From assembly GCF_003334385.1 (NCBI RefSeq), contig NZ_QOWN01000174.1: a stretch of DNA of 494 nucleotides; one strand, 5' to 3'. The notes below the pieces were generated by a model. That model had not been told where the DNA came from. It saw nothing but the letters and a program-made list of their open reading frames with translations, and did no database searches. This document shows, in pieces, positions 1 through 494 of this stretch. This stretch comes from Escherichia coli. GTDB lineage: Bacteria; Pseudomonadota; Gammaproteobacteria; Enterobacterales; Enterobacteriaceae. Position numbers and translations under genes: made by a program. The first letter of the stretch is position 1, and the number at the start of each line of letters is the position of its first letter.

Positions 1-494
1 TTTGCAGGTGTACGATAAGACCAGGCGGCTTCGTAAAGCAGACGTCTCAGTTCGCTGTTTCCAACTTTTGTTATTCCCCTGGGACGAATGCTGTTTCCAC
101 TGGAATATTCCCCTGGAACCAGTCCCAGAAAAGCCATGAGTTGTTTGGGACTGGAAAATCGTGAAAAATCACCCAGTTCAGCAACCAGGGTTATTGCGGT
201 TAGCTGACCAACACCTTTAAGGGCCTGTAACTGGCAGACCAGATTGCACAGAGACCACTCAGGTAACAGGCGGGATATTTCCTGGTCGAGTTGAAGTATG
301 CGATCTTCAATCTGCTCCAGACTCTGACAATAGTGTTGAAAAGCAATCTGTTGAGATGGCTGACTAAATGATTGATTGGCTAACCAGGTTCGATGTTTGC
401 CGGTCCAGTGCTTCCCTGCATAACGTTTGTCTGTTCGCAATAGCATGCTCAGAATTCGCTGTCGGGCAACTCTGCTGTCTCGTTTAGCTGCTGC
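1..494 (-). CDS. IS110-family transposase (DEDD-type recombinase), internal fragment; N-terminus lies beyond position 494 and C-terminus beyond position 1
   Basis: Hand translation of the reverse complement starting at position 494 gives 164 sense codons with no stop (codons occupy 494 down to 3; positions 2-1 start the next codon). Family motifs recalled from memory are present: helix-hairpin-helix-like LKGVGQLTAITLVAELGDFSRF (approx 156-221), FLGLVPGEYSSGNSIRPRGITKVGNSELRRLLYEAAW (approx 21-131) with the conserved Ser-Gly (second Ser of YSSG, codon at 99-101), and a heptad-like linker SLEQIEDRILQLDQEISRLL (approx 261-320). All three plus-strand frames contain stops (for example frame 1 TAA at 16-18, frame 2 TGA at 137-139, frame 3 TGA at 162-164). 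No database search was run. Confidence 0.9.
1..494 (-). mobile_element. Internal portion of an IS110-family insertion sequence; element ends and insertion site not in window
   Basis: Inferred from the transposase CDS: IS110-family elements are small and consist mostly of the single recombinase gene. No element boundary, target site or flanking host sequence is visible, so the extent and intactness of the element cannot be assessed. Confidence 0.75.

Follow-up and report, generated by a model that had tools for sequence, protein, structure and literature searches.

The window, by which we mean the whole 494-nt stretch of Escherichia coli DNA analysed here, is occupied by part of one gene read on the minus strand. 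Minus-strand frame 0 is the sole frame open from end to end in the six-frame translation, giving 164 codons on plus-strand positions 3–494, with bases 1–2 forming the start of codon 303. Over all 494 bases the window is 100% identical to NZ_CP019778.1 1291233–1291726 (E. coli NCTC86), where the match is annotated as 'IS110-like element ISEc45 family transposase' (WP_000555380.1). A megablast of the window against 5426 complete E. coli genomes returned full-identity chromosomal matches that are all annotated as ISEc45 family transposase, and 136 records match at 99% identity or higher. In NCTC86 the gene (ISEc45 tnp) is 1,134 bp long and encodes 377 amino acids, with the window at offset 414 of the 1131-nt coding sequence. 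Judged by this identity, the window comes from the middle of the transposase gene of the known E. coli mobile element ISEc45, whose name we take from the NCBI (RefSeq/PGAP) annotation. A plus-strand reading of the window was rejected: its open reading frames reach at most 48 aa, and none was supported.

The features of the gene that fall within the window are as follows.

3..494, minus strand: internal part of the ISEc45 transposase gene, codons 139–302 of 377 (six-frame translation, 100% identity)
435..494, minus strand: C-terminal end of the RuvC-like DEDD_Tnp_IS110 domain, residues 139–158 (PF01548)
15..230, minus strand: Transposase_20 (Tnp) domain, residues 227–298 (PF02371; aligns to the IS621 structure 8wt6)
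99..101, minus strand: AGT codon of Ser270 in the motif GEYSSG (phmmer alignment to 8wt6_A)

In the full protein, Pfam places PF01548 (DEDD_Tnp_IS110) at residues 10–158 (E = 3.6e-15) and PF02371 (Transposase_20) at residues 227–298 (E = 1.6e-23), the two domains that together define the IS110 family. With the NCBIfam model NF033542 ('IS110 family RNA-guided transposase', cut-off 140) the protein reaches 279.9 bits, and homologues are abundant, with more than 7,400 matches at E ≤ 1e-30. The motifs GLD13VH, YE64AG, KND102HRD105A and GEYSS270G are all present; the N-terminal D-E-D-D residues were assigned by eye, while the Ser region was structure-aligned. In the phmmer alignment to 8wt6_A, Ser270 stands opposite the Ser of YESG in IS621, which we take to be the catalytic S241, and by homology Ser270 is probably the catalytic serine of ISEc45. 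In many E. coli proteins, for example from strain 55989, up to the first ~76% of the ISEc45 transposase is present at 99–100% identity, followed by an HTH_21 (IS3-family) domain. These proteins suggest either recurrent IS3-family insertion within ISEc45 copies or a fusion artefact.

Layout and expression of ISEc45

Comparison of copies delimits an element of 1,446–1,447 bp, GATG(G/A)TATGACCTTT...AAAGGTCATAAGA, with 60 nt upstream of tnp and a 252-nt non-coding region downstream. The copies from E. coli, Salmonella, Vibrio and Limnoglobus all share its subterminal inverted repeats, GATGG-TATGACCTTT ... AAAGGTCATA-AGA.

L001 19527–20972: ISEc45 element, with the window at L001 20001–20494
L001 20721–20972: 3′ non-coding region of ISEc45
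L004 1515–2961, L006 1593–3038, L016 9941–11393, L014 9942–11379 and L017 9924–11413: other ISEc45-like copies

When the flanks of the L004 copy are joined, the resulting 400 nt match uninterrupted IS66-family tnpC genes with 100% identity. The joined flanks thus represent the empty site, which means that insertion is precise, without target duplication, and that the element boundaries are good to about 1 nt.

On its domains and termini, ISEc45 is an IS110-family element with an IS1111-type layout, having the subterminal inverted repeats, the long downstream non-coding region and the site-specific insertion without duplication by which the IS1111 subgroup is recognized. In IS1111-type elements such as ISEc11, ISKpn4 and ISPa11, a 3′ seekRNA guides target choice (Siddiquee et al. 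2024, PMC11187229). ISEc45 is like these elements in its DEDD transposase, in the subterminal inverted repeats TATGACCTTT / AAAGGTCATA and the 252-nt downstream non-coding region, in using a single specific site without target duplication, and in carrying a right-end −35 that could form a circle promoter. The non-coding region also appears structured, and one part of it co-varies with the target flank. Unlike ISEc11, ISKpn4 and ISPa11, ISEc45 has as its target the G(R/K)KN|(W/Y)(L/V)F codons of IS66-family tnpC.

IS621 and ISCro4 (PDB 8wt6 and 9t56) belong to the same family, and the Tnp domain of ISEc45 aligns to them with E = 8e-10 and 1.4e-8. However, phmmer similarity is detectable in the C-terminal domain only, and the ISEc45 protein is ~50 residues longer. 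The guide RNA of IS621 lies upstream of its gene, whereas the long non-coding region of ISEc45 lies downstream of tnp. A literature search on the biology of ISEc45 found the element listed in mobile-element inventories only.

The transposase gene is probably lowly expressed, as suggested by a codon adaptation index (CAI) of 0.226, taken as a proxy, and by a simple scan of the integrated element in which no sigma-70-like promoter turned up, where shuffled sequence would give 2.1. Counting against low expression, tnp has a strong Shine–Dalgarno sequence, GGAGG. The right end of ISEc45 carries a perfect −35, TTGACA, which is TTGAAA in Vibrio and TGGACA in Limnoglobus. In a hypothetical circle junction (L001 20933–20972 joined to 19527–19596), this TTGACA would lie 17 nt from the TGG-TATGAC of the left end, and only in such a junction do the −35 TTGACA and the TGn-TATGAC meet. 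The proposed −10 lacks the T at position 6 and so fails the −10 rule of the scan, which makes this weak evidence for a promoter. Circle-junction promoters have been shown experimentally for ISEc11 and ISEc21 (PMC11187229), and the candidate ISEc45 junction promoter resembles them.

Insertion in IS66-family transposase genes

All 13 of the ISEc45-like copies examined lie at the same point of the IS66-family transposase gene tnpC. They comprise nine E. coli copies in different IS66 members and those from Salmonella, Vibrio, locus L015 and the planctomycete Limnoglobus. The insertion point falls between the codons for G(R/K)KN and (W/Y)(L/V)F, in target transposases that are only 31–62% identical to each other as proteins.

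The fold of the 252-nt 3′ region (z = −2.6) has a large internal loop closed by a long stem, and compensatory changes occur in 10 of the 30 consensus pairs across six sequences. Since no Rfam family matches the ISEc45 element and its flanks at E ≤ 1, the 3′ region is without a curated family. Within the loop, a CA-NNNN-GA segment best matches the left flank of its own copy (CACGTA|GA in L004, AACCA|GA in Vibrio and AGCCA|GA in Limnoglobus), and it co-varies with the last left-flank bases in the E. coli variants, Salmonella, Vibrio and Limnoglobus. This segment looks like the left target guide of a putative seekRNA. A conserved ATAAGAG(TTT) segment of the same region equals the right end plus flank. 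The candidate for a right-hand guide has a clear match in the Limnoglobus copy only (7/9) and is ambiguous in the E. coli copies. Exact 6-mer matches between the non-coding region and the junctions occur at chance level, roughly estimated at about 4 expected per comparison; only two longer matches stand out, the 10-nt ATAAGAGTTT at the right junction of L006 and L009 and the 8-nt CACGTAGA at the left junction of L004.

We tentatively raise the possibility that ISEc45 and its relatives, down to 58% protein identity and across Enterobacteriaceae, Vibrio and Planctomycetota, form a hitherto undescribed clade of RNA-guided IS1111-type elements. Such a clade would insert only at the IS66 transposase motif G(R/K)KN|(W/Y)(L/V)F, with a 3′ guide that co-varies with the left flank. 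In the literature searched, which was that outside ISfinder and subscription papers, we found no description of IS66 targeting by ISEc45-like elements; a published parallel is ISEc21, which targets IS3-family transposase genes. An IS66-specialized clade of guide-RNA insertion sequences, if real, would offer natural guide–target pairs across phyla for the study and engineering of bridge/seek-RNA recombinases.

Codon choice in the window and in host genes

Among the 15 Arg codons of the window are six CGA, two AGA, one AGG, four CGT and two CGC, and its eight Ile codons divide into four ATA, four ATT and no ATC. These counts reproduce exactly those of the initial annotation, which had reported nine of 15 Arg codons as CGA, AGA or AGG and four of eight Ile codons as ATA. 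Rare Arg codons and ATA together make up 13 of the 23 Arg and Ile codons, at the following positions.

480–482, 462–464, 456–458, 435–437, 390–392 and 159–161, minus strand: CGA codons (codon count)
471–473 and 45–47, minus strand: AGA codons (codon count)
78–80, minus strand: AGG codon (codon count)
297–299, 276–278, 192–194 and 72–74, minus strand: ATA codons (codon count)

The ten Gly codons include four GGA and two GGG, and the 22 Leu codons include three TTA and two CTA. The window has a GC content of 0.48, a GC3 of 0.41 and a CAI of 0.225; the corresponding values for the full gene are 0.47, 0.377 and 0.226.

We compared these values with a host set of 159 annotated NCTC86 chromosomal genes (55,974 codons), drawn from four 50-kb regions rather than the whole genome, within which the S10 and str operons served as the CAI reference for high expression. 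CGA, AGA and AGG account for 8.2% of host Arg codons versus 60% in the window (binomial p = 5e-7), and ATA for 5.1% of host Ile codons versus 50% (binomial p = 4e-4). GGA/GGG and TTA/CTA had also been described as frequent. This stands for glycine, where GGA and GGG supply six of the ten codons (binomial p = 0.008 against the host), but not for leucine, where TTA and CTA supply five of 22 codons against 13.6% in the host, an excess that is not significant (p = 0.17). When the host genes were cut into 1653 windows of 164 codons, none held 13 or more rare Arg and ATA codons, while 19 had a CAI of 0.225 or below and 21 a GC3 of 0.41 or below. The full-gene GC3 of 0.377 lies below that of all 159 host genes (mean 0.563, sd 0.055, z = −3.4), and only three of them, gspA, gspC and yhfG, have a CAI below 0.226.

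The initial annotation had made its reading conditional on an enterobacterial host, and identity of the window to ISEc45 tnp in many E. coli chromosomes supplies that host. The comparison it proposed, of CAI, codon usage and GC3 with host core genes, bears it out, with the gene departing strongly on both GC3 (below 159 of 159) and CAI; core genes with a similar codon distribution, named there as the finding that would speak against it, are excluded among the 159 NCTC86 genes. With neither its codon usage nor its GC3 in the range shown by host genes, ISEc45 tnp falls in the atypical-codon class of E. coli genes, which was reportedly recognized by Medigue and colleagues in 1991 and by Lawrence and Ochman in 1997 and is said to hold horizontally transferred and IS genes. 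It is like that class in its low CAI, its share of AGA, AGG, CGA and ATA, its low GC3 and its patchy distribution, and we found no difference. ISEc45 tnp is a textbook example of an atypical-codon gene, and the codon finding as such is already known. Its value is that of a clean, quantified case of the rule that mobile-element genes in E. coli are without the codon preferences of their host.

The chromosomal genes gspA, gspB, gspC, gspI, gspL and gspM of the NCTC86 gsp operon (L003 5569–18279) are as unadapted as the IS gene, and for them, too, a uniform codon model beats the host model. Because resident, H-NS-silenced genes such as gspA and gspC are equally unadapted, codon usage alone is no proof of foreign origin or recent transfer; distribution data are.

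Measured against unbiased choice, the excess of rare codons disappears. The nine rare Arg codons of the window compare with 7.5 expected under uniform choice, or 8.1 under the third-base composition of the gene itself, and the four ATA codons with 2.7 or 3.1, respectively. Over the full gene, uniform choice predicts 16.0 rare Arg codons and 8.0 ATA codons, and 16 and 7 are observed. The effective codon number Nc of ISEc45 tnp is 54.3, against 55.7 expected from its GC3s and a median of 44.9 for host genes of at least 200 codons, and codon choice is described better by the uniform model than by the host one, the difference being 0.12 log units per codon. ISEc45 tnp is essentially without codon bias rather than favouring rare codons. 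E. coli core genes avoid CGA, AGA, AGG, ATA and GGA, so that an unbiased gene looks 'rich in rare codons' beside them. This is a useful correction to the description of the window as making heavy use of rare codons, which here amounts to no codon preference, and counts of rare codons should be given no regulatory reading unless they are tested against unbiased usage.

Origin of the codon composition and distribution of the element

We consider it probable, at roughly 0.85, that ISEc45 tnp is unbiased and slightly A/T-rich at third positions through the combination of two causes. A rarely made transposase would be under no translational selection, and its composition, as the relatives suggest, would have been brought from a lower-GC background and would not yet have drifted to the enterobacterial norm. 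The rare codons would then be a by-product and not a device.

Neighbouring island and IS genes have a rare-Arg fraction of 0.13–0.67 and a GC3 of 0.36–0.69. Raised rare Arg together with scattered GC3 implies that the lack of translational selection is shared with these neighbours, while the low GC3 is specific to ISEc45. Among other IS genes of the same NCTC86 island, GC3 is 0.61–0.63 for IS21 and 0.56 for IS66 tnpB, versus 0.38 for ISEc45 tnp, and the IS21 values show that low GC3 is not general among IS genes. Four homologues were also compared with their surroundings, with host-neighbour GC3 taken from 5–7 genes each. The Vibrio sp. SA48 homologue (71% identity) has a GC3 of 0.34 versus 0.38 in its neighbours, and the Limnoglobus roseus homologue (58% identity) 0.92 versus 0.83. 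The Salmonella homologue (86% identity) has 0.45 versus 0.62, that of locus L015 (71% identity) 0.43 versus 0.66, and ISEc45 tnp itself 0.38 versus 0.56 in its E. coli host. The transposase family does adopt host composition, given time, where it is presumably long resident. Since its members match host GC3 in Vibrio and Limnoglobus and lag behind it in enterobacteria, the enterobacterial ISEc45-like copies would seem to have come in fairly recently from a lower-GC background.

The rare codons might instead have been selected as a brake, slow decoding of CGA, AGA, AGG and ATA limiting transposase synthesis and so keeping transposition low. Transposases are generally held at low levels, the 13 of 23 Arg and Ile codons noted above are poorly read by E. 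coli, and the five successive Arg codons at residues 143–158 are all rare. These five, four CGA and one AGA (480–482, 471–473, 462–464, 456–458 and 435–437), lie in the stretch 435..494 on the minus strand. However, a run of rare Arg codons as long as this is not unusual in permutations (p = 0.35 for the longest run), the densest 20-codon stretch is likewise within chance (p = 0.66), and there is no 5′ ramp, with one rare codon in the first 25 codons of ISEc45 tnp. The rare-codon counts, moreover, are those of unbiased choice. The ISEc45 copies compared at 97.5–98.2% identity (1.8–2.5% different) show 15–23 synonymous versus 4 non-synonymous codon changes, an excess that indicates purifying selection on the transposase protein. 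Changes from rare to common and from common to rare codons among these copies are equal, at 3:3, so that no directional loss is seen, although differences are few and the power of this comparison is low. The Limnoglobus relative has nearly dropped such codons (4 of 38 Arg and 2 of 17 Ile), and their near-loss in this GC-rich host implies that the codons track composition, not function. Taken with the match to unbiased choice, this leaves a selected brake quite improbable.

Less probable still, to a degree that we regard as very slight, is that the usage is simply the host norm or that the host is a lower-GC organism in which such codons are common. The GC of 0.47 and GC3 of 0.38 would be unremarkable in a Vibrio-like genome, and the 71%-identical homologue of Vibrio sp. 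SA48 matches its neighbours, but many E. coli chromosomes carry the exact window sequence (136 records at ≥99% identity), E. coli core genes are strongly different, and close copies, most at 90% identity or higher, are carried on plasmids in Enterobacteriaceae. An explanation that dispenses with the imported signature is long residence in E. coli under relaxed selection and the AT-biased mutation of E. coli itself. The unbiased usage, with Nc near expectation, is what mutation alone would produce, and the resident silent genes gspA and gspC are similar. Against this, the IS genes of the same island differ in GC3 as given above (IS21, IS66 tnpB and ISEc45), so unselected IS genes in E. coli do not share one equilibrium composition, and ISEc45 is patchy among strains and plasmid-borne. 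We therefore consider long residence unlikely, and favour absent translational selection together with an imported composition.

The distribution data come from genomes and plasmids alike. The ISEc45 window sequence occurs in 1279 of the 5426 complete E. coli genomes, with 1–7 matching places each, and 174 of the matching places are on plasmids. A plasmid collection has 254 records with the gene, from Escherichia, Klebsiella, Enterobacter, Salmonella, Shigella and Citrobacter, of which 200 are predicted to be conjugative. The NCTC86 copy sits in a pathogenicity island with iha, the afa/dra operon and several other insertion sequences. Patchy presence among strains and carriage on mobile replicons place tnp in the horizontally acquired class. 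That the gene was horizontally acquired, as expected for an insertion sequence, had been proposed from its codons; it is now supported by its presence in under a quarter of the genomes, its plasmid and island locations and the verified empty site.

The copy on plasmid pAA1070 (L005, NZ_CP171475.1) has the usual IS66 right flank and an unrelated left flank, whose junction reads ...GGCAAGA|GATGATATGACC; this points to a deletion or rearrangement beside ISEc45 on that side. The pAA1070 backbone (~75.5 kb, E. coli O104:H4-type pAA) recurs among the plasmid matches.
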